Part shown: positions 6,142 to 64,000 of the stretch, piece after piece
Numbering within the stretch: the stretch's first letter is position 1
How the letters are laid out: each line of letters begins with the position of its first letter
Virus record (IMG/VR): IMGVR_UViG_3300035204_001773
Span: 45,212-109,211 of that record
Direction: 5' to 3' (one strand)
Length of the DNA stretch: 64,000 nt
Origin: a virus
Translations under genes and position numbers: made by a program
Notes under the pieces: generated by a model
Told to the model about the DNA's origin: nothing
The model's input: only the letters and a program-made list of their open reading frames with translations
Databases searched by the model: none

Positions 6142-6142
6142 T

Positions 6143-7324: not shown

Positions 7325-7345
7325 TTTTTAAATCTGTGTTATCAT
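7317..7345 (+). promoter_or_regulatory. sigma70-type extended -10 promoter, probably giving a leaderless transcript
   Basis: TTGACT (7317-7322), 17 nt, TATCAT (7340-7345) with TG at 7337-7338. ATG follows at 7351. Confidence 0.65.
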
Positions 7346-7350
7346 TAGGT

Positions 7351-23955: not shown

Positions 23956-26900
23956 TTACGATGTCCTATTTGGCGGAAAATAACCGCCTCCCTTTAAAAT
24001 ATTACCCTTACTCCAGTCTATAACCGCTTGCGCAATTGCATTCGGAATAGCTTGTACCGTACCGTCAATGTTTACATTTATATTAGCTGTTTGATTGCTA
24101 TCTCCTCCAATGTTTCTAATCTGCTCTATCTCGTCCTTCCGACTTCTTCCTTCTAGGTTTGCGGAAAGACTCTCTGCTGCCTTGGATATTTCTTCTCCGA
24201 ATGATGTTGCGGCCATGTTTATTTGTTGTGTCGCAGCTTCAAAATTCGGAACGAAGCCTGCTGCTCTACCACTTGAGAAGTTGGGAACTCCTCCTGTTCT
24301 TGACCCATAAGTATTTACATTTGCGCCTTCTGATCTTGCTCTACTGATTCCTTGATCCGGCCCCTGTGGTTCGTCAATTCTATTAAAGACGCCTACTCCG
24401 AAGTTGGGGACATACCCCTTGGCTGCGATACCTTGGATTCTTAAATTATTACTCTTAATAGCGGGGTGCTCTGCTACGTATACTGAGCCTTCCGCGTCTG
24501 ATTTAGAATACCCTCTACCCATGAGAGCGGTAATCTCTCTATCTTTTGCTTCTTCTAATTGGCTAGAGAAATTTGGTATAAACCCTCTATGTTTTCCAGC
24601 GCTACCAGAGCCACGGGCAAAATTAGGGATAAATCCTTTAGCTAAATTTTGTCCTCCCTTTACTCCCCTTCTTCTTCTCTCTTCATCTAAAACGGTTTTG
24701 GCCATTTTTAGATTTGCCAATTGTTCTAATTCTGCATTAGACATTCTCGCTAGCGCATCATCTAGAACTTGACCCGACTTGCCCGCCGTTGGATCCATTT
24801 GAGCTATCTCACCATAAACCTGACCCTGAAATTCGCTAACTTCTGACGGGTCCACATATCTCCACTGCTTCTCTTCCTTACCCGGAATCGTCAGAAGCTT
24901 CATCCATTCGCCCGTTTCCGGATCTAGCTTCCATTCGGACGCTTGGTCTCCCTTCCCGACCTTTACTGTTCCTCCATCCCTAAAGAAGCTATTCTTTCTT
25001 GTTCCTCCCAATTCGCCTTTGCTATCTCTACCCTTCACGCCCACACCCCTAGACCCAACTCCTTCGCGAACAACGTAACCTTCAATTCTGTCCCTTGCAT
25101 TCCCCACGGCTTTATTAAAACCGCTCTGACTAAATCCCTTGGTGCCCACTCCAGTTGCCGTTTCTTGTCTCTGCCATTCTTCCGCGTAGGCTGAAGAAGT
25201 AGTATTCAACCACTTTCTAAACGCCGGTGTTTGCATATCTTCTTCGGACATACCAGTTTGCTTTGCCATATTAAAAAGGAAATCTTTAGGCGGTATATTA
25301 GCGTCCTTCATCAACTGGAACATCTTCATCGCTGCTAGGTTATCTGGATCGTCTTCGTATCCCACCGAGGTTCCCCCCGCGAGCTTCTCCATCTCCATGC
25401 CTGTTCCGACCATTAGTTGGCCAAATAATTTAGTATCATCAGCCCTCTTCTTCTGTCCAACGGTTTTACCTTGATTACCGAAGGCTTGAGTGTTTTCGTA
25501 TTGATTAAAATAGTCGCCTACCCGTTTTTGGGTAATCTGGTCCCTAATTTCTCCCGCTATTCTTTGCGCTTGAGCTATGCCTTCCGGGCCAGTGTTGAAT
25601 AATGCTCCGGCCGCTTGGGTTTTTTGCTCGGGTGTTAAATCTTTACCAAATCTTGTAACTGCATCTGCTAAAAATGCTTTATCAGGGCCCGCTCCCGGGC
25701 CAACGGTCAAGTCGCTGACCAACGTCTTTTGCCAATATTGTTTAGATGCTTCAAGAGCAGCTTTTAATTTTTGATTTTTTAGCTTAATTTTTTCAAGTTC
25801 TTTTGCGTAACGCTTTTGCATCGCAGGATCATTAGTTGATTTCATAGCTTGCTGTAATTGAGCCGCCTCTTGCCCACCAGCAAGCATTTGCAAAGCAACC
25901 CCTTTGAATCGTTGTCCGTATGGACTAGCCGCCATAAGGGGATCTATACCCGCTGCTTCAAACAAGGTTGAAGGTTTCCCGGGTTGCCCCGTTAGGGGAT
26001 CAACGCTTTGGCCGCCTCCAAGGCCGAATTCGGTCATTAATTGCGGATTTTCTAAAAGCGTGCCTCCAGCAAAACCACCTGCGCCCGCCATAGACAGATC
26101 GGCCAAACTTACATCAACCCCCGAACGATCTATAGAAGCTTTGCCCCCACGAACAGATTCTGCTTGGACCATGTCACTATGACGATTTCTTTCCGCTCGC
26201 AATGCGCTTTTAACCTTGGCCATTGACATTTTTTGGCCAGCATATTGGCTCAATCCCAAGCTTTGTAAAAGAGTATCTGGAACTGCCTGTGAGGAATCAA
26301 GCCCTTGACCTCTAATCTCTAAAGCTCTTAATTTTTGCTGCGCAACCTGTTGACGAGCGAAAGATTTAGCCATATTGTCGCTAGCTCTTTTCTTCTGATC
26401 CTCTAGCATGTCTCTGTATTTTTCTTTTTTCTCTCCTCTAGCGCTTTGATATTTACCCCGCACGTAATCTAATGCGTGACCACTCGCTTTACCATACGTA
26501 AATCCTTGTTGAGATATTCCCAGTGAATGCTCTAAAGCTTCTTCTGTATTAATCCAGTTCTCTGCGGTAATAGCATTTCTGTCTCCACCTCCCCAGTCAT
26601 CAATCATCATTTGCTTCATGTTACCAATTTTGAAGTCTATGCCGAATCTCTGAGCGAAGGCCACCTGATTACCTGCTATTTTTGCGAACCTAGCAGCGGC
26701 TGCCTGTTTTACCCATGGCGGATTATTTGGAGCTTCTTTAAATTCTTGGGCTGCGTTTTGTATGGACCACAACATTTTCTTCCTCATTGTTTTCCTCTGT
26801 GAGTCTTGCAGTTTACGCTTTAATATGGGATCTTTTGTTCTCCGTATCATCTCTGCATTACCTTGGATATCCATAGACAACATTTGCCCCATGTCTTTTG

Positions 26901-29900
26901 TTTGGCCTGCTCTAGAAATTACGCCAAGCCTTTGGTTTCCTTGGGTTCCGTATTTTTTGGCATCCATTTTGCGCTCGATTTCTACTTCTGACAGTTCTTT
27001 CCTTGTTAATCTAGAATCGCCTTTGCCCTCTTTGCCTGTAAAAATATTCTTATGGAGTTGGTCCATTAATTTTGCTCCCGAACCTCTTGCTAATATATTG
27101 CCACGATGATCTCTTACAATAGACTCTCCATCATCGCCTTCTTCTACTTTAATTGCTCCCGTGGCCGACAGGTCTTGCACAAAGCTTCCTCGGGTTATAG
27201 CCTCCACTCTTCTGCCTCCAGACATATAATATGTTTTCCCATCAGCTGCTTTGTATAATTGGGTTTTTTTAATGGTCTTACCAGTATTTTTGTCGACATA
27301 TTGCTGAGATACTAATTGTGTTTCTCTAGCCTCGATTTTCTCTTTCATAGCAGGCATCTTCTTCATCTTCTCTCGCCACGCTTTGATGGCAGCTTCATTT
27401 GCTCCACCCCTTTTAAGCATCTCTTCTGCATCAACGAGGTTACCCTCCTGCATGGCCTTGTGATATTTACCACCCATTCTACCTGCTCTAGATTGTTCTG
27501 CTATCGCTTTTAAATCTCGTTTCCTCCCCGCTACTTCATTTTGAGCATCAATATTTGATTGCATTCGGCCGGGCATCATTGTCTTATCAATACCTTCATA
27601 CCAAGATTGCCCCATTTGTTCTCTTTCTAAATGTTTGAATTGCGCTTTAGTAGCCTCTTCTCTCATGTCTAATTTGTTCATTTCTTCCCCTACTTTAAAC
27701 ATCATCTTTACTTCGTCAGGTAAACCGGGAATATCTTTCATCTCCGACAAAATTTTATTACGCTTGGCTGTAGCTTCAGGAAGCTTTCCAGAGTCAAGTT
27801 CTTCTAAAGAAGCAAACCTCCCGCTCGCTTTTCTCATTTCCGCTTGCTGCGCGAACAATGCGGCTGTTCTTTGCGCAAATCCCTCTGGGTCATCTCCCAT
27901 TCCTAGAGAGGATAGTTTGTCATACCAAGCCAAGTCGGCATTATTTTTAATGTATTCGGCTCGTTCAGATGGTTCCATCGCTGCGAGCTCTTTTCCTGAC
28001 TTGCCAGTATAATGCTCAAGCCTATCGCTCATGTTTCGCATTTCTTCGGGGGATATACGAAGCAACTCTTTCTCCATATCAATCAGTGCGCTACTATCTG
28101 CACTCGCTGTTGTCCCAGTTTGTATTAAGTTGCTCATTAATTTTTGAGTTGATGCAGCTTTCTCTGCGTCGTAAATCAAAGCGGCGTTTTCTCCTTCTCC
28201 AAAGTTTAAAGATAAACCAAATCTATTTTGAGAACCGGGTTGAGTTAGTACTTCATCCCATAGTGCGCTAGCTAATTGTTGTCTTATTCCGTGATCTTTT
28301 TCTCCCGCTCTAGCTATTGCAGCATTTATTTTAGCGCCAGCCTCATCGGCTTTCATGTCTTTTTGACGTCTGAAATGATCAGCTAAAGTGGCCGCTGTCA
28401 TTGCGACCCATATTGCCGCACCAACTGGACCACCAGCCAACAATGCTGGTCCCATAGCTAAAATATCTATACCCAATCGGGTTCCAGTAGCAACGCGATC
28501 TTTTTGTAATTGGAGTTGGTGCATTTCCACAGTAGCATCAGCCCCATCAACCCCGCCTTTTTCCATGCGCCCCTGAAGACCTTCCATTTCTTTTGCGTAA
28601 GCTTTATTTACAAAATGAGAACCAATCATTTGTCCAACTATACCAACTCCAAGACCACGTATTGCTGATGATCCTCCAAATTTCTTTGCCATCCCCTTGG
28701 TCCACTGGCCAGACTTACTTGCTTTCACTGATTTCCATATGCCGCCTTTTTTCGCTACCTTGTCTAATCCCTCTCCCGCTTTTTTGTACGCGGCACCTCT
28801 TAACCCCTTATCGCTCGCATCTGTGAAAAAGTCTGCAGCTTTCTTGACGGCGCTTTTCTTTGACCCGCTCTTTACGCTTTGTTCTATTGCGCCTTCGGCC
28901 AATTCTTTAGCCGCTCTTTGCTGAGCTTCTTTTTCCAAGCCCCGCATAATCATATACGTGCCTACCCCATAACCTCCATACGTAGCTATTCCTTCTCCTA
29001 TTTTAGCTATGGTTTTATTCTCGTTTTGCATAAGGTATTTACCAATCCAACCAGTAGCTAAACCAGCGCCAATACCCACAGCACCGCCCCTAAGATCTCT
29101 ACCTATAGTGCCTCCACCGAATTTTCCTCCTCCAAAGCCCCATTTTTGTTTACCCATCTGCCACATCTGTTTATAATTGTTGCCGAATAACGTGCGGGAC
29201 ATTAGCCCTCCTTGCTCTGGGCGATAAAGACCGATCTTATGGGAAAGTTTTCCTATGGTTTTCATGGCAGTCTTAACCTTGCCATCTCTTCGACCTTCTA
29301 TACCTTTTGCTAAATCCTTGGAAGCTGCATCTAATCGCCGGGCGAGGAGTTCCTGATCTGCTTTCACCTTCATGTTTTGCTCTGTTTTCAACGCATCAGC
29401 TTGCAACCTTCCTAGCTGCGCATTCCGCTGTTTCGTGGCGTCCGCAGACCGCCGCCCCGGATCCTTCTCTATCGCTTGTAATTGCTTTTCTAGCAACCCT
29501 GAGTCCGGCCCCGCCTTTGCCATCATCAAGCGTCCCAGTTTTTGTGCTCCGCTGCGTCCGGATTTGTCAGGCGGTAAAGCGGCCACCTTATCCAGCGGGG
29601 TATTTTTTCCGCCCTCAACGTGTTTGGTCCAAGCCGCTTTAAGCATGTTCTGCCCCTTACTATAAGACATTGAGCCATTACCGACTTTTTTCTCAATCCT
29701 CGCTCTTGTTTTTTCAAACTGTGCTACGGCCTTTCTAATGTTAACATCGTGCGGATTACCAAAACCCATTGCCCCCTTTCCAACGCCCTTAAGGCCCATT
29801 GCGCCTGCTTTATATCCTCTATTAGCTAATGCAAATTTAGCCTTCCCAGCGACCTTAGGATCACTGGATCGGGCATTGGTTTCTAATTTAGCGCGGGCCT

Positions 29901-38900: not shown

Positions 38901-41900
38901 AAGAAATATCAGAGTCTACCCTTTCTCTTCTAACGTCGGATAAACCCGCCGCTCCTATACCCACTTCTTCTCCAGCACTTCTCATACTTGAGGCGGTCAC
39001 CGTGGTTTTACCAGAAAGATTCGCTTTATCGCCTTCTACTTTTACTAATTCGCTTTCTACCTGCTCTAGTTGTGCCAACGTAACATTATATTCGTCAGAA
39101 CCTTTCTTCATTGTTTTCAAGGTTTTAACTAGAGCCTTCACCTCTTTTTCCATCGTTTTAACAGCTGGTTCTAAACCGCTCAACGGCGAACCGAGAACAC
39201 CTTTAGTTAGGTGTCCTCCGGCACGCACAGCTGCACCCATTTTACCCGACGTAAGAGTGGTTTCTTTTTCTTTTAACCAACGAGCGAATCCACCTTCTTC
39301 GTCATCATCAAGGAAATTTGGAATATAACCAGCCGCAGCTATTCCATAAGTGTTGGGATTTTTGCCTTCTTTTAGAGCTCGACTAACGCCTTGTCCAAGT
39401 CCTTTCTTTTCGTCAATATCGTTACCAACACCAAGGTTCAATGGGTTTGCGGTAATTCTTTTATCTTGCCCCAAGAAAATATGACTCTTCGCTTCTTGTC
39501 TGGAGATGTCTTCTCTAACTGATAAGGCATTTATTTCCCTTTCTTCTGCCTTTGCAACTTGCTCTTTTATACCCGGTGTCCATGCACTTCTTGTAAAATG
39601 TCCATCTGCAAAATTAGGAACATAACCTCGTGCGCCGTGTATTCCTCCAATTCTTTTTACTTCTTGTTCGCTTCTTGGAGAATGATGTTGCCATCCTCCC
39701 GCTGAAATTTTTTGTAATTCTTGGTCCGGACCATTCCAATGTTGTACATCGAAATAGATTGCTTTTTTCATTGCAAGATCTATAAGTCTAGCAACCGCTT
39801 CTTGTCCATTTCTGCCAGCGCCCAACTGCAAGCCAAGCCACCTCCGAGTCTTTTCTCGATTCATTAGGCGTTTCGTGCCATGTTTGGTTTCTCTTAAACC
39901 GCTCGACGCCTCACTTCTACGAGCAAGTTCACCTGCTGTGCCGGGGCTACCATCTGCAGGAGGAATCTCCGGCGCAGAACCGACCTCTTCGTCACCGGGT
40001 GTTAATTCTAACATGGCTCCGCGATGTTCTCCCCATCGTTGTGCGACACCCTCACTTCTACTTAATGAAGCAACTCCGGGTTGAGACTTTGTTCTAACGC
40101 TTTGATCAGCGAGCCACCCCTCAAAAGATCTTAGTGATTCTTCGGGAGTATTTCCTTCTCCGGCTTGTCTAGTTGTTGTTACGGTCTCTTGTTTCCAATC
40201 TGACCAACCCACGTTAGTGTAGGACATATCGGGTCTGCCATCTTCACCATATTGATATTCTCCTTCTTTGTATCCCCGAAAAAGATTTAGGAAGTTTGGT
40301 ATGAATCCTAAGCTCTTCATATTAGCTAAATTTTCTGGCTTAGCTAATTGTAAAATTCTTTCTACATCATTTATATTTGTAATTTTATCAAAGCCCTCAT
40401 CTAAAGTAGGAGCTTCAAAACGATTAAACATACCTTCAATAGCTGCATCTGGTATAGTTTTGCTACCGCCCTTGGCTTTTGTTAGTTCGGCTCTCCTCGC
40501 TGTAATCGCCTTAACAGCTGATATAACTTGCTGTTGTTTTTCGTCTGGTAATTGAGATATATCACTAAAGACTACCGCCTGTTTTTCGTACCCTTTAATA
40601 TCATTCTCATCGAACATATTTAAAGACATTGATCGTTCTCTTGCGGACATGTTTGTCATATCTACAGAAATATCTTTACCTGACTTACCAGCTTCCGCAA
40701 CCCTTTTGTCAAATTTATTTTGAATCTCGCTTCTAACTTGGCCTATTTTATCCCAAATTAATTTAGGTATCCAAGGCTGTTGTTCAGCTTTCTCTTCATC
40801 GTATTCTGGATTTATAACTGCTTTGCCATATTTAGGATGAGTTTGACCTAATCTAGTTCCCGCTGCGGGTGTCTCAAATGAGTCGTCATAAGTCAGTCCC
40901 ATGTCTTTAGTTACTTGATTGACTATGTCATCTCTACTTACGATGAAATCTTTCGGCGCGTTCTCTTTGAGCCAAGTTGATTTACCAACCCCCGGAGCAC
41001 CGACAAGTGTTCTTAATTTTCTCGCAAAGCTCGGGACATGTCCCCTACCAAATCCCATACCGCCCATGTCACCCGCTAATGCGCCCATTAATTCTCTATG
41101 AGCTTCTTGAGAAGACTCGCTTCGCCCATCATTAACGTCTCTCCCGTTAAATTTACTGCCCGGTCCCGCATTTATAAATCCACCTTCCCCAGCATGAGAT
41201 TCTCTTCTTCCTTTCAAATAAGCAGCGGCTTGAAAATGAAATCGCGTCCCGGCCCTTGGATCATAGGTTGCGGTCTTGCCTCCATCAGCACTAAAGGCAA
41301 CCGAATCATTTTTCAAATCTTGTCCTCTTGCCCACTTTTCAAAATTTGGGACAAAACCTCCTGCGCGACCCTTGCCCGTGCCCCCGGCTCGTTTGTCCAC
41401 GCCCCCCATCTGTAAATATTCCGCCTGTTCAGCCTCTGATAGATCACGCATTACTTGCTTCCGAATCGCCGCTTCTTCGTCTTGCTGGCTCATTCCATAA
41501 AGATTCACGCCTTTCCGTCTTAACGTCTGGCGTGCTTTTATCTCAAGTTGGTGAAAATGCTCCCTTCTATTCTTCCTATTTTTCTCGGTTTCTTCTCTTG
41601 TTGGCTGGATATTACCTTGTTCATCTATCGCGCCCAAACTCCTAAACTCAGGTTCATTACCCGTAAAGACAGCCTCTATAAAGCTGTGCCCCTTTGCTCC
41701 TATGCCAAAAATATTATCCCCACTAATTTTTGGACTATATTCATTAAAGAATTCTTTAAGGCTGTTAATAGAATTCTTGATCTCGTCTTCGTTCAACAAG
41801 TTGCCAAGGTTTCTTGCGCTCATCTTTTGGCTTGAGGGACGCTTGTTATCTTGTTTCGGAATAAATGATTTAATGGTTCTTTTAAGTCTTGCCCATAGAG

Positions 41901-44900
41901 TTTCTTCTTTTCTTATGAGATCTTTGTCAACCTCATTGCCCGTTGGCGTTGTGCCTTTAAATCTTTCAAAGAAATTCGGAATATTACCGGCATATTTCGC
42001 TACTAATTTTTTCTTTCCAATCCGCGCGATATGATCTTTATGCAGATTATTCGCTCGCACAAGAGCTTGATCATATGCGGGATCCCCTGATTTACCCGTT
42101 TGTAAAGCACTGATTTCAGACGAATTCAAACCCATTTCATAAAGATAATGAGGCTCTTTCGATTTAAGGTCATCTGAATCAAAATCAGTAGCTTTGATCT
42201 CTAGCCCCTGCATAGGCATCCCCGGGGTAAACATACCTCCAAATTCTTCTTGTATCCTTTCGTTAGATATATCTATTGGTTCTTCGCCAGCTGTATAAGG
42301 TTTTCCCGAGACTGTATCTTGTGGTGGCGTTCTTCCTCCTACCGTCGTCTTTTGCGCGGTAGTCATTCCATGTATCATGCCTTCCCATAATGCTCCAGCA
42401 AGATCCCGTTTTGTCCCAACTGGTAACTTCATGCCGCCTACAGCGAATTTGCTTTGCAACTTGCCAGTTACTTGTGCTAACTGATTCTTAAAGTCTGGAT
42501 CTTGAAGAGCAGCCTCTTCATCACCTCCGTATGATTGCTTAACCGTCATCCCGGGTCCAGCTTCGTCTATAAACCAAGTTCCCATATTTGGTAGGACGGT
42601 CCCAGAAACTTGTTGCTCTACTTTATCATAGAACCTATCTCTTATTCCTGAATCAAATACTTTCGGATCAAGTCCATAACGCTGAACTCTCGATGATTTG
42701 TGTCTAGAAGATATTTCCGAAGGCTCTTCTGCTGATCCACCAGACTGTCCCGGCGCTCTTGTGCCCATCGTGAGAACTGGGGTATAATGAGGCGCGCGTT
42801 CTCCTTTAGATAAATTTATTACCGTGCCATCTGCTAACGTAATTGTTTTGTCAGCAGCAAAATTAGGCACGTTCCCCCACGCGGCCATAGCTTGTTTATC
42901 TCCCATTGCGCCGAGTGCCGAGCCCTGAGCGCCACTCTTGTCAATATGATCTCTAACCCAACTAAGTTTTCTTTTTGGTCCCGTTCCCCTATTATCGCTT
43001 TCGTGAACGTAAGTTCCTAAGCTCGGCGCGTACCTCCATAAGGCGTTTGCGTCGTAATGATCTATTTGGCTTTCCTTCTTCTGCGCAGACCTTAAAGAAG
43101 TCGATAGCCCCTTAGTAGTACGCATTGAGCTAGCGAAACTTGGAACAAATCCTCCAGCAACGCGTTGACCAGTTGTTGTGTCGATCATGTCAGGATCAGT
43201 AACCACATGCCCCTTACCCATCTCTCGAGCTTTCTTTAATAATCTTACGTGCTCTTGGGATACGCTTTTCCCCTCGCGGCTACGATCTATTACTTTCTTA
43301 TCTGGCCCGAGGAGAAGATGATAGTTTCCTTCTGTTCTATCTTCGAAGTTGGGAACAAAACCTCCTGCTACTCTTAAACGAAGCCCTCTGGCGTGACTAA
43401 TAGCATCCTCGGGGCTCTTAAAAGTTTGACCTGTCGGGTTGTATTTCCATCCTCGAGTTGTTAAAGGGCTATCATAAAGAGACTGAACATCATTCATTTC
43501 AGTCATTCCCTCAAATGGCTCCTGTCCTTTAGGCCAATGAGGCTTGGGATGTCCTGCGTCCATCAAATCTCGAACCGTTAGCCTTGACAACCGAGAAACT
43601 TCCTCATCGTACTCGGGGTCGCCGGGATTCGCCGGTAACATAAGATAGCTAGGTCCACCATCGAATCCTCCATCCGGCTTATGATGTTTTTTCCATCCTG
43701 ATGGTCGTGCAAAATTTGGAATAAAACCTGAAGCCCTCTTACTCCTTTCTATTCCGCCGGGATTTGCTCCACGGTTAGCGAAAGGAGTTTCAAAAGTCTG
43801 CACTCCCCGAACCCCAGTCATATTTAATCTTTCAATTTCTTCTATATTAGCCTTGGCGTCATCATACAAAACTAACTCGGGACTTTTTCCTGCTTCTTTG
43901 GCCTTTTTGCTCATTCTAGCCATTAGCAAGGTTTTCTTTTGAGCAGCATTTAAATAACGCCATTGCCTACTTCCTTGCCCCTCTGGCCATCCATCTTCGC
44001 CTAATTTTTCAAACTGGCCATGAAATCTACCGCCTTGAATAAAATCTTTTTTTCTAACAAGGCCTACTTCAAGACCTGTCTCAGGATCAATTGTACTAAA
44101 GTCTGGATTATCCATAACCTTCATGTCGTTGAACATGGATCCGCTAGTTATAACCCTATCAACATTTACCCCTTGACTTTCGAGTTGTCTCCTGATTACC
44201 GCGTTTGTTCCCTCTCCTTGAGTAATGGCTTGACGTGACCCTGCTCCTCTAGCAGTCGCTACAGTGACTGGTGCTTGTGATGCCTTATAATCTTCTCCTC
44301 TACTTGTCAGGGTTGACTTCTTTACCGACCAAGGGAATGCAAAAGATCTACTTGGCATATCGGCGGGATATGTGCCAAGATTTTCATCATAGTCTTCGAG
44401 ATTAACTACTTCACCGTCTTCTAAATCTCTGGGCCTTACATAGTTAGGAACAACACGTCTTCCTCTATTTGAGGAAAGAAAATTAGGTACGTTACCGCGG
44501 AAAACATTATACGTTTTTCCCTTGTGTCTTTTTAAATCCGGTCTTGCTTTTTCTACTTCATCATAGAAAGCGGTATAATCTATGGGCGCATCTAACGTTC
44601 CCGCTAATTGCTCATGGCTTCTTGCGTCATCCCTGTGAGATGTTGATAGTCTAGATTCCCGTTGACCTCGCACTTCTTCTTGAGATTTGTCAAGACCAAT
44701 TAGCCTCTTGCTCATTCCAAGCACGTTACCGAAGAAATCATTATTAAGACTTTCCCCTCCATGAATTATTGCGAACTTATCCATCGCGTCGAATTGACTC
44801 TGGTTAGTTACCAGAACCCCTTTTCCTACGTTGGGTATTTTCTTATCAAGAGCTTTGTTGCCTGATTTCAAACCGGCGAAAGTAGATTTCCCTGAGCCAG

Positions 44901-47900
44901 CTGGCCCCATGACAGTACTCACGGGCTTGCCAGTTTGAAAAGCGTCATAAACCAATTCTTCCCACGAATCTCTGTCCATTTTTGATCTATCGAAATCGAG
45001 AACACCTCTAGCAAAATTTGGAATCATTCCTGAAGCTTTCAACGCCATACTGCTCGAATCAAACGCTGGAACATGCCCCATGTACTTCGGTAGAGCATTT
45101 ATGGAACTAGCTGTTGTCGCTAGTGCTTTTCTAGACTTTCGCTTTTCCTCTTCCTGTCTTCTTGTAAATAAAGCGTGAGAATGCTCCCATTGCTCTTTAA
45201 ATTGCCCCTCGTTAATAAATGAATTTATAGTATCTTTACTTATTTCGCCCCCCTCGTCTCCTGCTGTTCGAGAAAATTCGGAACCATGCAATAAAGCACC
45301 GATAGTTTTATCTACCCTTTCTTTATCCGCTGCCCCCATGTCCCCAGAGAAATACGAGTCTGGATCTAAGCCTTCTAATTCTAACCCAGCGACTTTTGCT
45401 ATTGGATTATTTTTTCTTTTAATATTCTCTTTAGATGATAAACCAAGACCTCCGTGTTTCGGGTCTCCACGCCTTATGCCAAACCAATCTTTAGACCCAG
45501 CGGTTTGAACTGTATTAACTATTCTAGAACCAAACTCGGTTGCTTCAAATAATTTATCAGCCATACTATTCATATTACCCTGACTCGTACTATTTTTGGC
45601 ATCTGCTAAAGGAGTTTTCACACCAAAGGTATCAGGGTGCCTAAGCTTGTGATATCCCCCATCTCGCCCTTCCATATAGTCCCATCTAGTAGAACTAGAT
45701 TTAGCAAAATCAGTATCATCATAAACTAAAGCATCCACAGACCCCTCGAACGCTCTACCAACTGCTTGAGCCATTTGCCCTGTTCCAACAACTTTATTTA
45801 CATATTTTTTGATATCAGCCTCGTCAGCTGGCGGTTTAAAATATTGATTTGCATATCTTGATACTTCTGCTCCAATTTGATTATTGATTGACTCTTGCGC
45901 CTCAGAACTATCCGGTGCTCTTTTCGCTGACAAAGCAGGAAAAGAAGCCTTTAAAGAAACCCCATAAGCTCCGAAGGTCTGTTGTGCTTTATCATTAAAT
46001 TTTACATTATAAACCCCCGGAGTTGGTGTGCGCTTACCCCCACCTTTATCAGGCAAGAGTATGGAAGCCATGTGATGAGCATTGACTACTCCTCCGGGTA
46101 AAATATCTGCTTGACCGCTTGCTCTTTTGAGTTGCTTTTTAATTGGGTCTAATTTTTCATTAGTTAAATCTAAATAAGTTCTTGGAATTTTTAATTTCTC
46201 TTTCTCTGCTGCCATAAAATTAGGCACACTGCCAACTGCTGTAAATTTATTAAACTCACTCTTCTTAACTTTCTCAATTGTTTTTTCTAAAACTTTTTGT
46301 ACCTGCGGTTTATACTTTGGTAAAATAGCTGAATCTCCACCCTTAAGCCCCTTGGGTTTAACGCCGTATCTCTGAAACAGTTCTTTAGCAGTAAACTCCT
46401 GCTCACTAGAATTCATTATTACGCGTTTACCATCGATCGTGCCCCTAGACATATGCGCTCTAGTTCCAGAGGCTGCCCCCATAGCTCTGGCCATCTTTGT
46501 TTCTTCTTTATATGGGTCATAAAAGAAGTTAGGAATATTGCCCGAGGCATTCCCGCCGCCGCCTTTCTTCCCGGGGACATCCCAACCACCGCCCTTCATA
46601 GGGAACATAACTCCTCCGCCAAAACTTCCAGTAGAATGCATTGTCTTAGCTAACATAGCAACAATTTTAGCTTGATTCGTCATTTCTCTATTCTCTGCTC
46701 TTATTTTTTCTAAAAGATCTCTATGAACATCTGCAAGAGATTTTGTACCTCGCATAATTTCTTTTAACATCCTCGGCTCTTCAGCAAGCAGTGAATTCAA
46801 TTGGGTTTGAATCCTCTGTTGGTCCGCCATGTGCTTACCTCCCCCGCTAATCGTTTTAAAAGCGTCTACGGCATAAATCCTAAGTTTATCAAATAATTTA
46901 AACAAAGCCATAATACCCACGGCAAGACCCGGACCTTTTAAAAATTCTCCGAGACCTTTCGACATTCCAGAAGAAAGCTTAGATCCCAGACTCTCTCCCG
47001 AAGCCCCAAGGTCGGTTGATTCTAAAACTGTATTTATGCCCGAAAGAACTCTTTTTATAGCGGGGGCAAGAGCATCTTCTCCCAGCTTAGAACCGGCTTG
47101 TTTTAAATTAGCCATGGTTCTATTAATTAAAGTGCTAAAGCTTTGGTTCAATTTTTCATTTCTCGCAATAGCTTCATCGGTAGCAGAGGTGGCAATACCT
47201 AAAGCGTTTTCATATATTGAAAATTCTTTTGTTAAATCACTCAAAGAAGCTTTTAAAATATTAATTTGGAATACGCCACCAACTAATTCAGCAATCTGAG
47301 CTTGTTGCGATTGCGCTAGGCTATCGTACTGCCTCGCTAAATTTTGCAGCACTTGCATAAGAGGCATCATTTGCCCGCTTTGCTTTTTGGTTTGCACGCC
47401 AATTTCTTCAAGTGCCTCTAAGACTCTAGGCCTTTGTATTCTTGTGAAAATAGTTTTGAACGCGTTACCAATAACATTACCACCACGAGCAGTAACTTGT
47501 TGAGTGGCCGTTATAACTGCAAGTAGTTCTTCAAATTTTACTCCCGCTCCAGCAGCCGTGCTTCCTACTCTTCGGATTGCTTCAGCAAGGTCACCAGAAC
47601 TCACGGCAAAAGCCTGATCAACCTGAGCCATCTTACTAATTATTTCTGTAGAATTTAGAGCCGCCCTTGAATAGCCGTTCATAGCAGCAGTAATCGCGTT
47701 TACAGCAGCGGCGGCATCTAATCCAGAAATTCTTGTTAGTATAAGAGCGTCTTGGGTCCTTTTAAGGGTTTCTTGCATCCCAAGACCTTGTCTTGCGAAT
47801 TCTCCAGCAGCAGTAGCCACTGTTTGGAAACTTTGCGCTGTGTTTCTGGCTACATCAAATAATGAATTTCCAAATTTAGTAAGTTGGTTTTGGCTAGTAT

Positions 47901-48189
47901 TTAAAATTGTATTAATTTCTGTTAAAGATTTTTCAACCTCCACAGCGGAACTTACCATTTGTCTAAACGCATCTTGAACACCCATAATAAGACCAGCGGA
48001 TGCGCCAAAGGCAAGTACACGAGCATTAGAAGCGGCGAGAGATTTTTCAAATTCACCCAGATCCCCCTTGATGCGACCAAGAGGAGCGCCATCGAAATTT
48101 ACAGACACAGGTACGCGACTTAGCTTCTTAAGCCTCTTTTCGAGAGGGCTTAAATCACCATGTACCTTGACTGTTACTGATCCGGGCAT
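23956..48189 (-). CDS. giant (8077 aa) tape measure protein with embedded enzyme cassettes (polyvalent TMP)
   Basis: N-terminal TP901-type TMP core (EVEKSLTEINTIL...AAGEFARQG...ALILTRISGLDA...FAVSSGDLAEAIRRVG...RGGNVIGNAFKTIFTRI). Canonical position after tube and chaperone genes. Two hydrophobic blocks, long coiled coils, 17x GxxPNF and internal enzyme motifs. Confidence 0.92.
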   Translation of the reverse strand: MPGSVTVKVHGDLSPLEKRLKKLSRVPVSVNFDGAPLGRIKGDLGEFEKSLAASNARVLAFGASAGLIMGVQDAFRQMVSSAVEVEKSLTEINTILNTSQNQLTKFGNSLFDVARNTAQSFQTVATAAGEFARQGLGMQETLKRTQDALILTRISGLDAAAAVNAITAAMNGYSRAALNSTEIISKMAQVDQAFAVSSGDLAEAIRRVGSTAAGAGVKFEELLAVITATQQVTARGGNVIGNAFKTIFTRIQRPRVLEALEEIGVQTKKQSGQMMPLMQVLQNLARQYDSLAQSQQAQIAELVGGVFQINILKASLSDLTKEFSIYENALGIATSATDEAIARNEKLNQSFSTLINRTMANLKQAGSKLGEDALAPAIKRVLSGINTVLESTDLGASGESLGSKLSSGMSKGLGEFLKGPGLAVGIMALFKLFDKLRIYAVDAFKTISGGGKHMADQQRIQTQLNSLLAEEPRMLKEIMRGTKSLADVHRDLLEKIRAENREMTNQAKIVAMLAKTMHSTGSFGGGVMFPMKGGGWDVPGKKGGGGNASGNIPNFFYDPYKEETKMARAMGAASGTRAHMSRGTIDGKRVIMNSSEQEFTAKELFQRYGVKPKGLKGGDSAILPKYKPQVQKVLEKTIEKVKKSEFNKFTAVGSVPNFMAAEKEKLKIPRTYLDLTNEKLDPIKKQLKRASGQADILPGGVVNAHHMASILLPDKGGGKRTPTPGVYNVKFNDKAQQTFGAYGVSLKASFPALSAKRAPDSSEAQESINNQIGAEVSRYANQYFKPPADEADIKKYVNKVVGTGQMAQAVGRAFEGSVDALVYDDTDFAKSSSTRWDYMEGRDGGYHKLRHPDTFGVKTPLADAKNSTSQGNMNSMADKLFEATEFGSRIVNTVQTAGSKDWFGIRRGDPKHGGLGLSSKENIKRKNNPIAKVAGLELEGLDPDSYFSGDMGAADKERVDKTIGALLHGSEFSRTAGDEGGEISKDTINSFINEGQFKEQWEHSHALFTRRQEEEKRKSRKALATTASSINALPKYMGHVPAFDSSSMALKASGMIPNFARGVLDFDRSKMDRDSWEELVYDAFQTGKPVSTVMGPAGSGKSTFAGLKSGNKALDKKIPNVGKGVLVTNQSQFDAMDKFAIIHGGESLNNDFFGNVLGMSKRLIGLDKSQEEVRGQRESRLSTSHRDDARSHEQLAGTLDAPIDYTAFYDEVEKARPDLKRHKGKTYNVFRGNVPNFLSSNRGRRVVPNYVRPRDLEDGEVVNLEDYDENLGTYPADMPSRSFAFPWSVKKSTLTSRGEDYKASQAPVTVATARGAGSRQAITQGEGTNAVIRRQLESQGVNVDRVITSGSMFNDMKVMDNPDFSTIDPETGLEVGLVRKKDFIQGGRFHGQFEKLGEDGWPEGQGSRQWRYLNAAQKKTLLMARMSKKAKEAGKSPELVLYDDAKANIEEIERLNMTGVRGVQTFETPFANRGANPGGIERSKRASGFIPNFARPSGWKKHHKPDGGFDGGPSYLMLPANPGDPEYDEEVSRLSRLTVRDLMDAGHPKPHWPKGQEPFEGMTEMNDVQSLYDSPLTTRGWKYNPTGQTFKSPEDAISHARGLRLRVAGGFVPNFEDRTEGNYHLLLGPDKKVIDRSREGKSVSQEHVRLLKKAREMGKGHVVTDPDMIDTTTGQRVAGGFVPSFASSMRTTKGLSTSLRSAQKKESQIDHYDANALWRYAPSLGTYVHESDNRGTGPKRKLSWVRDHIDKSGAQGSALGAMGDKQAMAAWGNVPNFAADKTITLADGTVINLSKGERAPHYTPVLTMGTRAPGQSGGSAEEPSEISSRHKSSRVQRYGLDPKVFDSGIRDRFYDKVEQQVSGTVLPNMGTWFIDEAGPGMTVKQSYGGDEEAALQDPDFKNQLAQVTGKLQSKFAVGGMKLPVGTKRDLAGALWEGMIHGMTTAQKTTVGGRTPPQDTVSGKPYTAGEEPIDISNERIQEEFGGMFTPGMPMQGLEIKATDFDSDDLKSKEPHYLYEMGLNSSEISALQTGKSGDPAYDQALVRANNLHKDHIARIGKKKLVAKYAGNIPNFFERFKGTTPTGNEVDKDLIRKEETLWARLKRTIKSFIPKQDNKRPSSQKMSARNLGNLLNEDEIKNSINSLKEFFNEYSPKISGDNIFGIGAKGHSFIEAVFTGNEPEFRSLGAIDEQGNIQPTREETEKNRKNRREHFHQLEIKARQTLRRKGVNLYGMSQQDEEAAIRKQVMRDLSEAEQAEYLQMGGVDKRAGGTGKGRAGGFVPNFEKWARGQDLKNDSVAFSADGGKTATYDPRAGTRFHFQAAAYLKGRRESHAGEGGFINAGPGSKFNGRDVNDGRSESSQEAHRELMGALAGDMGGMGFGRGHVPSFARKLRTLVGAPGVGKSTWLKENAPKDFIVSRDDIVNQVTKDMGLTYDDSFETPAAGTRLGQTHPKYGKAVINPEYDEEKAEQQPWIPKLIWDKIGQVRSEIQNKFDKRVAEAGKSGKDISVDMTNMSARERSMSLNMFDENDIKGYEKQAVVFSDISQLPDEKQQQVISAVKAITARRAELTKAKGGSKTIPDAAIEGMFNRFEAPTLDEGFDKITNINDVERILQLAKPENLANMKSLGFIPNFLNLFRGYKEGEYQYGEDGRPDMSYTNVGWSDWKQETVTTTRQAGEGNTPEESLRSFEGWLADQSVRTKSQPGVASLSRSEGVAQRWGEHRGAMLELTPGDEEVGSAPEIPPADGSPGTAGELARRSEASSGLRETKHGTKRLMNREKTRRWLGLQLGAGRNGQEAVARLIDLAMKKAIYFDVQHWNGPDQELQKISAGGWQHHSPRSEQEVKRIGGIHGARGYVPNFADGHFTRSAWTPGIKEQVAKAEEREINALSVREDISRQEAKSHIFLGQDKRITANPLNLGVGNDIDEKKGLGQGVSRALKEGKNPNTYGIAAAGYIPNFLDDDEEGGFARWLKEKETTLTSGKMGAAVRAGGHLTKGVLGSPLSGLEPAVKTMEKEVKALVKTLKTMKKGSDEYNVTLAQLEQVESELVKVEGDKANLSGKTTVTASSMRSAGEEVGIGAAGLSDVRRERVDSDISSDQLSRSFMMSQIGMSLGEIVPEAKGVTDTLVGMQNSFSAIVAVLPGTFGRVVGGAAALAVGIDKATAWIRDIAMNAKDMAKDAETAKEKYTEINDAMSQYMSTWDQLNSAKQDGAAPFETMRRLDKKLLDLMGSITAIDEEAGMAMGMAVSANQLKEAYEKARQRLEEDRNQKVAGDNLTKRQQQGNAGVLKTLAEGLTLGMMDFGNPYETGGTFGTKRSKIDNKAAEEDAKEVLSSIGAFSNRDAMTKLAGGPGLKSAGDDASAIISILENAGLSLNANAQQGIQNLEGKGGLTILAKEMDKLIQAQKENSDKHDESNAAREKARKQSEKLKEALDQAKQGFVEAQRNFNDALMFVTKIKDIEGGARRRVDIEGLKGGMGMMRRGTMGASAFGLQVKTAGIRNDQFTKAQDATRGARGKQLSEFQSELTKLQEKKKGSQADDIGRISQEFTAMMEKNKDLSATETADAIKKFTERSDVTSALGPKLINRLVRSSREEGQKVLRQLKELSINTQAQIDIAKQAFEFEKQERQRKRDVSMLGGMDGLLDPDKQTADIEGFLEGLIRMQKTQEAGADFKGQQAKGTAEMLRGLKGLMGGSLFGGREEAQVKAGGGVETAEEVQRRLQIEFPDLMKFRGDFIKQMGKDRSNQLNMMADQAEAAGAPRGVVAGMRREAGRAEESVANVFDEEFMTGAIDKQQLQQLKSIDGRLGSLPKDLASAINFDPQAALTSASTDMGAARRGVQGAQDAYDQFEREGDREANKKKLKDAKRDADMQVGQLAMDPQMMAAMGGMDAKQRKRTLKNIFETEGAGSAADIANMLKAPGAGRKFGISSTHARGLQGVFDQAAREQRDGEDSPFSIGQRVKKPRVATQTAKTLDENLQAHQKLGQLQAQKRRIENELQAADERDRGPIRARLRQTESEIEALREKQSRAAHGFVPGGGGLSASIERSQALEGGYRAGAIKNMKISGVGNVTYNSAESVVSVPGISQPFINPPEFSKAGKAHKQRSKAAWGINPYTVASDGYTPGEKITYKVPSLAAGGSPSPIEVFAPSPDLLPSTDGLRKVEVKYDKLEKWYSEWHDAIARNPDIVNHTELTSDNVLDWQKYDNVKQRIKSSTGINLTPQIALNMPMGAVGMNNTKDFIDRVKSEQEEIRKGNLSNFSLFRGQNEFFTLGQPKENLPGFLHIPEQGGRTRSEFVRGARKMGNQVYHLRTPSQPSVSVSSGTSINEFHGMLQSNGIAKNSGEWTRLMYSFIQKNNPKEKWSEEANKWGINAGSLGGIAAASKARTKQEMMGRGGAHKPVKGSDGNTYANLSPIREYLTSLRNDPETGRDPRAQRELTRRYIQQYYGPKDWKRAYRYLYSLETGIPAYQLGALGDSGGLDERTAIWAFGQTGGRDPKIDGTLGDPSNLSGASLMPAGRGRPVGFDPATGRFLHEDQRKWLQDRGKLRVDHGRKTYAQGMVPMSFAAGGFVPGTGSFGQVYQADIWNKLGMGGTKFTNQEKLDMLDLYDDLLKGRSRGLIDSLPGGTSVRGGVANVLDRRSGHHSTWFGARGGPLGTGGSRKQMVLDTPMGGQAINLAGEEEHSWRAMNAFYAGLSPYFMGSALTDAPEKVKQKKPKKAAQVKKDSKNNWVRNTAKWFTNLGKKTSAGLGGVGMSIKEAMNMASRYKMPFNIKDTWRSWKSSMAEGARKIGGPIVDKVKGMGAGALNKLHGKLFTNYFAEGKIGKLVGGMSKRYAMFESIKLSNLYEQNMAKKTGSPTGVLGESIKKDYANAVKQNWDITKQNTTNKPGGASGARWGGWWDATKNQVVVDDEIVKAGKQKGGAGQMARNVQRGLIVHEMTHALESGKAAQNLGGEASKNAASQYLLKSMGAQVELSQQQAGVGQKGGAAEHRMGTMSPDEFMRQRLGDTAPDKSLMDQAKTSTKGGFSKRAWMKRTHRQVMGGLGEAYNKALATGKSVTVSPSRLAMNAFSGLPPEMADQFSKMLSQQMNDIEIKPGDKRFLNKDGSFSRQKLFKMVKGQAGYQRMIKEIGNRVQLGSIDEEYKTYSTQRMAERMGAKGNWVMAKDFLKVAVPHLLREKNVHPSQLKERFMNFAREKFGRVPKTTALSIHGEKNMGTIQADSNKPALKMSEKFFNSRAGRMLTGLADLRKSPLYRGVKFTGGQISDLSKKFTNLSRSPILKALRGYKQDFSRGKRFTGKMKFDEIKNQKEQIKSRNRMTRIGASVGSAESLAKSIKSQVSKATGSVKTNFWNQVGAFKHGYTGGAKGAFVATDSALRTEGLGKGAAASVQHLKSALGQGQQFAKNLVNMQKSPILNKIIEGHAGAKGMLGDFKHGFKSGNLRKFNIAMPGAPEVKASGAQKLGATFKNLSTSLVDGIGRGKDNFKTWSKSKLNSMKARFNQTELVKGYRFGAGQPTGRQHGGFQGKVEHSRMRKFGAGIKGGQDLVKKLQHQIATGLVDAGETVKSSPVGKAVGSVHKAAASFFDFNRSPLVSKGKKFRGDFSRARRFFGKLSGPQRNSLMAMPEFKSRSLATKLGIKTIQAGDFLKNLFGTPKQAAQLQAATSGTKIDTSGLDKKKPTLAERLRKPYDNFKRGRRFMQKISPEERQNQRAQMKTRDAYTKAGMKSVLAMDYMKNLKKKLGSIPGRLKEAGGKSFADIKKGWKAGALNLDKPERMKFSKEGSGYRGRLVRNTIPMEQLKKGPAANNMSRSEWLARRARIGAGVTKEWLKNLPSRFGGLMNKHLQKSPVMEGFKIGRQGGRGEEMRRLFPDARTGLPGGKREGMFGALGRMTGRFASQLPLVAKGENFWTGKRSLVPSWITEGAREQAMTPKERKAHERKEAAKDRRLARRALQDPNVLKDQLGLTDDQIKLLQKKGLLKKLGSARSFDKVIASLAEQTKSAKKGHGKNRLRIRELSAMNKAANFSVGRSANDGAGGKWSGSVRAPSSRVSSLAAILTDRSMSRAGGGPSARGNVVELSQQNVERMKALDPDFKQEGGKARAKLETNARSSDPKVAGKAKFALANRGYKAGAMGLKGVGKGAMGFGNPHDVNIRKAVAQFEKTRARIEKKVGNGSMSYSKGQNMLKAAWTKHVEGGKNTPLDKVAALPPDKSGRSGAQKLGRLMMAKAGPDSGLLEKQLQAIEKDPGRRSADATKQRNAQLGRLQADALKTEQNMKVKADQELLARRLDAASKDLAKGIEGRRDGKVKTAMKTIGKLSHKIGLYRPEQGGLMSRTLFGNNYKQMWQMGKQKWGFGGGKFGGGTIGRDLRGGAVGIGAGLATGWIGKYLMQNENKTIAKIGEGIATYGGYGVGTYMIMRGLEKEAQQRAAKELAEGAIEQSVKSGSKKSAVKKAADFFTDASDKGLRGAAYKKAGEGLDKVAKKGGIWKSVKASKSGQWTKGMAKKFGGSSAIRGLGVGIVGQMIGSHFVNKAYAKEMEGLQGRMEKGGVDGADATVEMHQLQLQKDRVATGTRLGIDILAMGPALLAGGPVGAAIWVAMTAATLADHFRRQKDMKADEAGAKINAAIARAGEKDHGIRQQLASALWDEVLTQPGSQNRFGLSLNFGEGENAALIYDAEKAASTQKLMSNLIQTGTTASADSSALIDMEKELLRISPEEMRNMSDRLEHYTGKSGKELAAMEPSERAEYIKNNADLAWYDKLSSLGMGDDPEGFAQRTAALFAQQAEMRKASGRFASLEELDSGKLPEATAKRNKILSEMKDIPGLPDEVKMMFKVGEEMNKLDMREEATKAQFKHLEREQMGQSWYEGIDKTMMPGRMQSNIDAQNEVAGRKRDLKAIAEQSRAGRMGGKYHKAMQEGNLVDAEEMLKRGGANEAAIKAWREKMKKMPAMKEKIEARETQLVSQQYVDKNTGKTIKKTQLYKAADGKTYYMSGGRRVEAITRGSFVQDLSATGAIKVEEGDDGESIVRDHRGNILARGSGAKLMDQLHKNIFTGKEGKGDSRLTRKELSEVEIERKMDAKKYGTQGNQRLGVISRAGQTKDMGQMLSMDIQGNAEMIRRTKDPILKRKLQDSQRKTMRKKMLWSIQNAAQEFKEAPNNPPWVKQAAAARFAKIAGNQVAFAQRFGIDFKIGNMKQMMIDDWGGGDRNAITAENWINTEEALEHSLGISQQGFTYGKASGHALDYVRGKYQSARGEKKEKYRDMLEDQKKRASDNMAKSFARQQVAQQKLRALEIRGQGLDSSQAVPDTLLQSLGLSQYAGQKMSMAKVKSALRAERNRHSDMVQAESVRGGKASIDRSGVDVSLADLSMAGAGGFAGGTLLENPQLMTEFGLGGGQSVDPLTGQPGKPSTLFEAAGIDPLMAASPYGQRFKGVALQMLAGGQEAAQLQQAMKSTNDPAMQKRYAKELEKIKLKNQKLKAALEASKQYWQKTLVSDLTVGPGAGPDKAFLADAVTRFGKDLTPEQKTQAAGALFNTGPEGIAQAQRIAGEIRDQITQKRVGDYFNQYENTQAFGNQGKTVGQKKRADDTKLFGQLMVGTGMEMEKLAGGTSVGYEDDPDNLAAMKMFQLMKDANIPPKDFLFNMAKQTGMSEEDMQTPAFRKWLNTTSSAYAEEWQRQETATGVGTKGFSQSGFNKAVGNARDRIEGYVVREGVGSRGVGVKGRDSKGELGGTRKNSFFRDGGTVKVGKGDQASEWKLDPETGEWMKLLTIPGKEEKQWRYVDPSEVSEFQGQVYGEIAQMDPTAGKSGQVLDDALARMSNAELEQLANLKMAKTVLDEERRRRGVKGGQNLAKGFIPNFARGSGSAGKHRGFIPNFSSQLEEAKDREITALMGRGYSKSDAEGSVYVAEHPAIKSNNLRIQGIAAKGYVPNFGVGVFNRIDEPQGPDQGISRARSEGANVNTYGSRTGGVPNFSSGRAAGFVPNFEAATQQINMAATSFGEEISKAAESLSANLEGRSRKDEIEQIRNIGGDSNQTANINVNIDGTVQAIPNAIAQAVIDWSKGNILKGGGYFPPNRTS
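24238..24645 (-). repeat. C-terminal cluster of five G-x-[IV]-P-N-F repeats in the TMP
   Basis: KGFIPNF, RGFIPNF, KGYVPNF, TGGVPNF and AGFVPNF within about 135 aa. Confidence 0.9.
39310..46551 (-). repeat. dispersed peptide repeat G-x-[IV]-P-N-F, main cluster (12 exact copies plus PAF, PNY and 2 PSF variants)
   Basis: Copies near 46525, 46220, 45065 (PAF), 45015, 44480, 44440 (PNY), 43712, 43345, 43135 (PSF), 42860, 41972, 41342, 41027 (PSF), 40292, 39611 and 39314. Confidence 0.9.
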
Positions 48190-49480: not shown

Positions 49481-49483
49481 GCA

Positions 49484-63196: not shown

Positions 63197-63998
63197 TTTT
63201 CCAACTATCCCAGAATTTAATATTTTTACTTGCCTCTTCTTCACTGTATTTTCTAAATCTCTGGTCTAGTCTACCGCTTCTTATTGCGCTTATTTTGATT
63301 GTCACAAATTCAGGAACTGCACCTTCGAAGCTAATATAAATTTGGCTATCTTCAGCATATGCTCCAACGATAACCGGACTACTTGGCACGCAACTTATGA
63401 CTTCTATAGTTTCTTCTTCCACAACATGTTTAAACGTGTCAGATATTTCAACTATAGCTTTTCTAAGGGCCATGGGATATACTTTAATTACATCTTCAAA
63501 TCTCGCTTCTGGCATTTCCGTACATACTAAACCCACGTAAACGCCCTCATCCTGACTAGGTACTATAGCGTATTTATCTCCAGAGGGACCAGCGGGACCA
63601 GCTGCACCAGTGGGACCAGCTGCGCCAGCGGGACCAGCAGGACCAGCAGGACCAGCGGGACCGGGAGGACCTGCAGTTCCACCGGAACCAGCAGCACCAT
63701 CTGCACCAGTAGGACCAGCGGGACCAGCGGGACCAGCTGCACCAGCAGGACCAGCGGGACCAGCGGGACCAGCTGCACCAGCAGGACCAGCGGGACCAGC
63801 TGCACCAGCAGGGCCAGTCGCACCAGCAGCACCAGCAGCACCAGTCGCACCAGCAGCACCATCGTCACCATCCGAACCATTCGAACCAGCAGGGCCAGTC
63901 GCGCCAGCAGGACCAGCGGGACCAGCTGCACCAGCAGGACCAGCGGGACCAGCGGGACCAGCTGCACCAGCAGGACCAGCGGGACCAGCGGGACCAGC
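63189..63998 (-). CDS. collagen-like (Gly-X-Y) virion fibre protein with C-terminal globular domain, 5'-truncated
   Basis: (GPA/GAA)n reads in frame into [34 protein letters not shown]...WDSWKNG*. The listed 63189-63536 ORF is only its C-terminus. Confidence 0.85.
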
Positions 63999-64000
63999 TG
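63586..64000 (-). repeat. 9-bp-periodic collagen repeat
   Basis: Repeated GGACCAGCG / GCACCAGCA-type units. Confidence 0.95.

Follow-up and report, generated by a model that had tools for sequence, protein, structure and literature searches.

Tape measure proteins (TMPs) of siphophages are located in the lumen of the tail tube and are expelled at infection, and some of them bear extra domains: the zinc peptidase of T5 pb2 and the Rpf and peptidase motifs of mycobacteriophage TMPs are examples of one or two cell-wall-directed domains of this kind. The particle-borne effectors of other systems, such as Alt and IPI-III of phage T4 or the cargo of Hcp in type VI secretion systems and of extracellular contractile injection systems (eCIS), come as separate proteins with terminal tags. 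In the polyvalent proteins of phages and conjugative elements disparate enzyme domains are combined with a high architectural turnover; in the described ones MuF, portal or other modules internal to the head serve as the anchor, and the text of that work contains neither the word 'tape' nor 'TMP' and makes no mention of a conserved motif delimiting the domains (Iyer et al., 2017, PMC5512222). Here we analyzed a stretch of viral DNA of 64,000 nucleotides (IMG/VR record IMGVR_UViG_3300035204_001773, positions 45,212 to 109,211; hereafter, the window), which encodes a TMP of 8077 amino acids (aa). The gene makes up 22% of the 109,211-bp contig, and this length is unusual in itself. At the level of sequence, our data establish the architecture of the protein, a short motif common to its family, the modular exchange of the cassettes between the motif copies and the kinase nature of one cassette. 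We consider it somewhat more probable than the contrary that the whole represents a tape-measure-borne polyvalent protein, in which modular cassettes are joined by a motif used for docking, where delivery, docking and the activities beyond the kinase are what we infer. In the literature we did not find any previous description of the motif or of a TMP-borne array of exchangeable cassettes delimited by a motif.

The identification of the open reading frame (ORF) as a TP901-type tail tape measure protein is sound, since it relies on Pfam and PHROG matches together with a gene order kept in 80 related viral contigs. The TMP gene is one of several large genes that form a block on the minus strand. 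The PhageMin_Tail domain (PF10145) was recognized at aa 114-301 (3e-29, 102.8 bits versus the cut-off of 33.2), and ten PHROG tape-measure families matched aa ~40-400, the best of them with 1e-53. The initial annotation of this DNA, made from the letters alone, had named an 8077-aa TMP with a TP901-type N-terminus, and both the uninterrupted ORF and these matches bear it out. The protein, enzyme cassettes included, contains no cysteine versus ~96 expected from 11 neighbouring structural ORFs (100 Cys in 8439 aa), and 146 of the 153 family TMPs are likewise cysteine-free. Such a chain fits the passage through a narrow channel and an oxidizing compartment.

The motif in its strict form, G-x-[IV]-P-[NS]-F, is found in 19 copies, at 0.011 expected from the protein composition. 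Fourteen of these lie at aa 550-2954 and five more at the C-terminus (aa 7852-7978); two variants, GHVPAF (aa 1038) and VVPNY (aa 1245), raise the count of the first array to the 16 copies or variants reported initially. When all six frames of the 109-kb genome were scanned, the TMP frame accounted for every strict copy but one, which belongs to an antisense ORF of 33 codons inside the same gene. Across 80 family loci, 310 copies were counted in 180,352 aa of TMP versus none in 338,826 aa of the flanking ORFs. The codons of the motif are 67-88% identical between copies and the gene contains no DNA repeat longer than 42 nt, which argues that the motif is selected at the peptide level and is not a product of assembly. 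The logo built from 763 family instances reads [KA][AS]xG[FY][IV]PNFA, with G, P, N and F each conserved at 95-99% (leave-one-out count) and Asn replaced by Ser or Ala in ~4% of the copies; K, R, G and P abound in the upstream flank, and the downstream one is unconserved. Tandem copies 8-17 aa apart, with nothing carried between them, also exist in the family. In AlphaFold2 (AF2) models built with family alignments, motifs 1-3 fall in linkers with a predicted local distance difference test (pLDDT) score below 50, beside the folded first cassette, C1 (pLDDT 76-88), and the partly confident second one, C2. In the relatives, none of the Pfam domains found (GNAT, PcfJ, HIGH_NTase1_ass, AAA_33 and a P-loop) spans a motif, all of them lying between motifs. 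The placement of the motif at domain borders, noted at the outset, is supported on both counts.

The motif characterizes a large family. An HMMER search with aa 1-1200 of the TMP returned, below 1e-30, 1471 cluster representatives. The 150 top-ranking ones are all below 1e-132, are 40-53% identical over the first ~600 residues, and the motif is present in 146 of them. With the family alignment as query, IMG/VR yielded at least 566 loci encoding TMPs of this family, and scans with single-sequence queries gave no match. The canonical member is 1700-2900 aa long and bears its four motifs near residues 545, 620, 890 and 965, and the motif count reaches 14 in some members. Family TMPs of 5833 and 5868 aa are encoded on independent contigs of 99-113 kb, and others have 3979 and 4978 aa; a word-index search found two shorter relatives with 11 and 8 motif copies and no giant homologue, and the 8077-aa sequence itself had no exact entry in the protein collection. 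Among cultured phages, the nearest TMPs belong to Bacillus and Lactococcus phages, with 26-30% identity in the PhageMin_Tail domain only; the one cultured TMP examined, that of Bacillus phage FADO, is without the motif, and neither the cassette zone nor the C-terminus had a tblastn match in cultured phages. The sequencing runs containing this DNA are seawater or marine metagenomes, with only small shares of it in runs X4-X7. The phage is an uncultured marine tailed phage of a large lineage known from metagenomes only, and its tail is probably long and non-contractile. Matches in genome collections were all to contigs of metagenome-assembled genomes of mixed phyla, several of them flavobacterial, and are unreliable as a host assignment.

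The cassettes between the motifs behave as modules. Splitting ~160 family TMPs at the motif gave 572 cassettes that fell into 103 clusters, 55 of them singletons. The median cassette size is 117 aa, and 75% of the cassettes do not exceed 250 aa; those of the 8077-aa protein have 64-395 aa. Of the ends of BLAST high-scoring segment pairs in 35 multi-cassette proteins, 48% lay no more than 5 aa from a motif, versus 5% for random positions; the median distances were 6 aa and 65 aa, respectively. Cassettes C3, C4, C11 and C12 recur in a relative of 68% identity (P0002) as motif-bounded blocks in changed order, separated by unrelated cassettes. That the motif delimits independently evolving cassettes is supported by these sequence comparisons. 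The family displays what the initial annotation had suggested looking for in homologous TMPs, i.e., a varying cassette content with a conserved motif and scaffold. Its view of the cassettes as a swappable set has to be narrowed: the ten cassettes C3-C12 are variable, and C1, C2 and C13 are core in nearly every member. A further hint comes from a marine run of a different study (X3), which contains a strain 95-99% identical over C4-C12 (window 39568-44161). In this strain a segment of 170 nt is replaced at 40071-40242, and weak joints start and end in motif codons, that of 43141->43352 corresponding to C6 plus one motif. As the flanks of the joints are short, this is only a hint.

Among the variable cassettes, C11 is confirmed as a polynucleotide kinase (PNK)-like kinase and is the sole enzyme cassette of this protein recognized by a curated sequence model: it matches PF13671 (AAA_33) with 7e-09 (36.6 bits versus the cut-off of 27) and contains the Walker A sequence GAPGVGKST. 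Further matches of C11 were a weak one to the NCBIfam PNK-3'Pase model and those to PHROG families of polynucleotide kinase and RNA ligase. In C3, the Walker A pattern GPxGxGK[ST]T is invariant in a cluster of four members, the Pfam P-loop matches being sub-threshold only. C4 contains motifs I-IV of haloacid dehalogenase (HAD)-type phosphatases (DxD, TAR, KK and DD..N) in this order, invariant in six divergent members, and the leads offered for it by a language model were HAD_SAK_1 and the T5 dNMPase (deoxynucleotidase) at 0.89-0.91. In C12, the elements FRGY, S-x-SRS and EQE of R-S-E ADP-ribosyltransferases (ARTs) follow in order and are invariant in a cluster of five members (three distinct sequences); the language model led to NarE, Pertussis_S1 and Scabin (0.90-0.94), its recognition score staying under the usual mark. 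Free-standing homologues of C12 were not found by a word-index search, and a PDB sequence search with TMP aa 540-3000 gave no match. C6-C10 are singletons among the 572 family cassettes. In a sample of 17 multi-cassette relatives Pfam recognized ART-PolyVal (6.7e-25), DUF7178, PcfJ and GNAT; in the 8077-aa TMP itself, ART-PolyVal, the MPTase zincin and other hallmark domains of polyvalent proteins had no Pfam match.

Core to the family are C1 (domain A), C13 (domain B) and, of C2, the initial ~240 residues, and the ten variable cassettes are inserted between C2 and C13. C2 is extended by a lineage-specific tail of 150 aa, which contains the variant GHVPAF. Across 38 sequences the C2 residues G..FE, D, [DE]xK and K do not vary, and in the AF2 model they map to a helix-strand-strand-helix run typical of PD-(D/E)xK enzymes. 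Weak matches of the C2 profile to lectins in PDB (0.0025) were judged not credible. The profile of domain A gave a summed match to the tetra-repeat adhesin 6xi1 (E 2.6e-5), in which single repeats were insignificant, and this likeness was taken as noise or a shared beta-hairpin pattern. Foldseek matches of the model of TMP aa 1-1200 were helical-repeat noise only. Both small domains are repeated further along the protein, which is detectable through family profiles only: the C-terminal motif cluster surrounds a third small domain, a copy of domain B, and a second copy of domain A is flanked by two decayed motifs (HGFVPGG and DGYTPGE). Self-BLAST of the TMP found no internal duplication at E<1e-3.

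The proposed reading is as follows. A helical N-terminal domain is succeeded by independently folding cassettes on disordered, basic, glycine-rich linkers, each terminating in the nine-residue motif [KA][AS]xG[FY][IV]PNFA. The canonical form comprises four motifs and three cassettes (domain A, the domain with the PD-(D/E)xK-like pattern and domain B), and in this phage ten cassettes have been added within the core, the helical scaffold has been greatly lengthened and five C-terminal motifs have been added. The cassettes may ride on the TMP in the tail lumen and exit at infection just ahead of the DNA; their travel into the host is suggested by the expulsion of the TMPs of other siphophages. 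They would then reach the host envelope or cytoplasm and could act on host nucleic acids or proteins. The motif would most likely serve as a recognition peptide that docks the linkers onto one conserved component of tail assembly or of the tube, and not as a site of chemistry. Its constancy would at the same time make it a universal in-frame junction, which accounts for cassettes being gained, lost and reordered without domain breakage. A bolder version of this proposal takes the motif for a general loading or threading signal, by which a non-contractile tail delivers an open-ended set of exchangeable folded proteins ahead of DNA, with most of the at least 100 cassette families having unknown host-takeover or anti-defence functions; we regard it as possible, though doubtful.

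A docking signal combined with an exchange junction is more likely than a cleavage site, because the motif looks like a short linear motif placed in disordered sequence, because Ser and Ala are tolerated at the Asn position and cargo-less tandem copies exist, and because no family-conserved protease was found. A true polyprotein, the enzymes of which are freed at the motif by a phage or host protease or by autocleavage, either in tail maturation or after ejection, appears rather unlikely but is a rival to be taken seriously. It would explain why a strictly conserved motif confined to one protein sits in exposed disordered linkers exactly between domains, and processing of TMPs is known elsewhere, in lambda gpH and T5 pb2. 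Cutting at the tandem copies, however, would yield merely tiny peptides, the replaceable Asn argues against the chemistry of Asn cyclization, and the canonical protein would be severed from its own scaffold at aa ~545. Zincin-mediated processing has been proposed for polyvalent proteins (PMC5512222), and the candidate zincin processing protease of this protein is a lone HExxH at aa 4936 (HEMTH, 0.086 expected by chance), which has no Pfam, NCBIfam or PDB match and no homologue in any of the 80 family loci. Less credence still is due to the view that the array is a structural device, its domains being spacers or wall- or membrane-penetrating parts of a tail of unusual length, the motif a periodic tube contact or a trimer staple and the enzyme motifs relics inactive in the host; this we consider quite improbable. 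The presence of domain A, C2, domain B and four motifs in nearly all members, the absence of an enzyme family match for most cassettes and the C-terminal motif cluster without cargo are what such a device would lead one to expect. Against it stand the invariance of the HAD, ART, Walker A and C2 E/D/[DE]xK residues across divergent copies, the bona fide ART-PolyVal, GNAT and PcfJ domains of the relatives and the high cassette turnover, which is typical of conflict genes and not of structural parts. Finally, the 24-kb ORF might be a chimera of related phages joined at motif repeats. The metagenomic origin of the sequence, the doubling of read depth at 46866-47532, where strains share sequence, and the weak joints at motif codons of the related strain in X3 could be read in this way. 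An assembly or annotation artefact is nevertheless highly improbable: the divergence of the motif codons and the lack of long repeats were noted above, 8077 codons follow without a stop, 18.7 kb of the gene (window 28190-46894) are matched without any mismatch by a single 49-kb Logan contig, the seawater run of which may be the source sample, and the relatives of 5868, 5833, 3979 and 4978 aa come from independent contigs.

Several points weigh against the interpretation of the TMP as a docked carrier of enzymes. The ART (C12), HAD (C4) and PD-(D/E)xK (C2) assignments are at the level of sequence motifs only, because searches of Pfam, NCBIfam and PDB sequences gave no match for any of the three cassettes, C12 being searched both as cassette and as profile, and with Foldseek and VIA neither a fold match nor a nuclease was obtained for the C2 model. 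Thus, from the complete enzyme motif sets listed by the initial annotation, the kinase has been substantiated by Pfam and the HAD and ART motifs have proved invariant, and the ART, HAD and PD-(D/E)xK folds were not confirmed. C5-C10 have no Pfam, NCBIfam or PDB match at all. A lumen of ~4 nm leaves little room for three copies of folded domains of 25-45 kDa. The strict conservation of the motif would equally suit a dedicated protease. The TMP of Bacillus phage FADO, outside the family and without the motif, is also cysteine-free, and the trait is therefore not specific. The runs that cover the gene fully may be the source sample itself. Considering these points together with those given above, we retain the reading of a tape-measure-borne polyvalent protein at the modest confidence stated at the beginning. 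The positions of all features are collected in Table 1.

Table 1. Features of the TMP gene and its surroundings (positions in the window; aa, residues of the TMP).
Feature	Position	Strand	Remarks
Tape measure protein gene, 8077 codons, cysteine-free	23956..48189	minus	Single uninterrupted ORF
Conserved N-terminal TMP domain, helical, aa 1-520	46630..48189	minus	PF10145; AF2 pLDDT ~90 at aa 80-390
Cassette array, aa 550-2959	39313..46542	minus	14 strict motifs, 2 variants, 13 cassettes
C1, small alpha/beta domain A, aa 556-652, core	46234..46524	minus	Aligned with 36 homologues
C2, core domain with E...D...[DE]xK pattern, aa 659-1053	45031..46215	minus	
C3, P-loop NTPase or kinase-like cassette, aa 1060-1231	44497..45012	minus	
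C4, HAD-phosphatase-like cassette, aa 1238-1487	43729..44478	minus	
C5-C10, six cassettes of 64-290 aa, no recognized family	41044..43710	minus	
C11, PNK-like P-loop kinase cassette, aa 2389-2627	40309..41025	minus	PF13671
C12, R-S-E ADP-ribosyltransferase-like cassette, aa 2634-2854	39628..40290	minus	
C13, small domain B, aa 2861-2953, core, closes the array	39331..39609	minus	Homologous to M3-M4 cassette, 37 loci
Hydrophobic, membrane-segment-like stretch, aa 3137-3156	38722..38781	minus	Kyte-Doolittle scan
Second domain A copy, aa ~4024-4160	35710..36120	minus	tblastn matches 59 loci at canonical domain A position
Lone HEMTH (HExxH), aa 4936	33370..33384	minus	
F-x-[RK]-G-x-[RK]-F copies, aa 5289, 5690	32300-32330, 31100-31125		Lysine-rich middle of the scaffold
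Second hydrophobic stretch, aa 6576-6601	28387..28464	minus	Kyte-Doolittle scan
C-terminal cluster, 5 motif copies, aa 7852-7983	24241..24636	minus	Spacings 17, 56, 41, 12 aa
Two conserved genes (409 aa, 374 aa) in tail-assembly-chaperone position	48251..50608	minus	Directly upstream of TMP gene
Adjacent genes of 441 aa and 2104 aa	52078-59733	minus	Share ~285-aa domain
DNA polymerase, C-terminal part	13-1665	plus	PHROG 405, 4.8e-84
Glycosyltransferase-like gene	3198-5123	plus	
Terminal repeat at contig end	~63940-64000		Would encode a collagen-like Gly-X-Y run

Beyond the cassette array, the last 4999 residues of the TMP (aa ~3079-8077) had no match in a PDB sequence search. The lysine-rich middle part of the scaffold contains recurrences of F-x-[RK]-G-x-[RK]-F, a basic motif that follows S/K-P-hydrophobic, which hints at degenerate internal repeats invisible to BLAST.

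None of the genes neighbouring the TMP matched any named structural or tail family. Of the 80 family loci, 73 and 74 have homologues of the two genes directly upstream in the corresponding position, and PDB sequence searches with profiles of the 374-aa, 409-aa and 441-aa proteins revealed no relative. Complex prediction for the 374-aa and 409-aa proteins with the segment motif1-C1-motif2 gave a score of 0.23 at a mark of 0.32, which tells neither way on docking. The 374-aa and 409-aa genes share a frame here, being separated by a stop and one codon; since the frames differ in the relatives, programmed readthrough is unlikely. In two related IMG/VR contigs, tblastn matches to the upstream genes contain in-frame stops (one in L009:8136-8906 and four in L078:8179-9228), which could be sequencing errors, pseudogenes or recoding. 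Still further upstream, the domain of ~285 aa shared by the adjacent 441-aa and 2104-aa genes corresponds in relatives to a single gene of ~290 aa, and Calx-beta and Ig-like domains are additionally present in the 2104-aa copy; a decorated paralogue of the major capsid or tail-tube protein is a possible identity. Upstream of the structural block, the opposite strand carries the polymerase part and the glycosyltransferase-like gene. The contig terminates in a GGACCAGC-type repeat that would encode a collagen-like Gly-X-Y run, because of which part of the genome may be lacking beyond it.

If the proposed reading is true, TMPs would be, beyond rulers and channel formers, carriers of fast-changing enzymes in a widespread marine lineage. 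The motif lets every cassette be found by sequence alone, the 572 cassettes in 103 clusters having come from a small sample, and with most of them belonging to no known family the result is a catalogue of candidate early-acting phage proteins. The mechanistic question raised is what reads the motif, which might also serve to attach chosen proteins to a phage tail.

Compared with the known systems, the protein resembles viral polyproteins in its serial domains separated by a recurring short sequence, and differs from them in that no cognate protease was found and that tandem motif copies occur without cargo between them. With T4 Alt and IPI-III and with Hcp and eCIS cargo it would share particle-borne effectors that use a short targeting signal and arrive with the DNA or before it, provided that delivery takes place as proposed, and most of its cassettes have a size range resembling that of lumen-sized cargo; unlike those separate proteins, the cargo is here covalently strung on the ruler protein, and no tagged free cargo was found within 10 kb of 80 family TMPs. 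The TP901-type N-terminal domain, the long helical scaffold, the hydrophobic segments and the presence of extra domains are common to this protein and to T5 pb2 and the mycobacteriophage TMPs, whereas the up to 13 or more cassettes of cytoplasm-type enzymes and the family-wide linker motif are not, nor is the size, 8077 aa versus about 800-3000 aa in known TMPs. The polyvalent proteins differ in their anchoring, the carrier being here the TMP, and the MPTase zincin proposed to process them is not a conserved part of this family. The likeness to them is twofold: unrelated enzymatic domains (ART, kinase, GNAT and nuclease-like ones, known here from their sequences) are gathered in one giant polypeptide of very fast architectural turnover, and relatives within the TMP family carry the hallmark ART-PolyVal and PcfJ domains.

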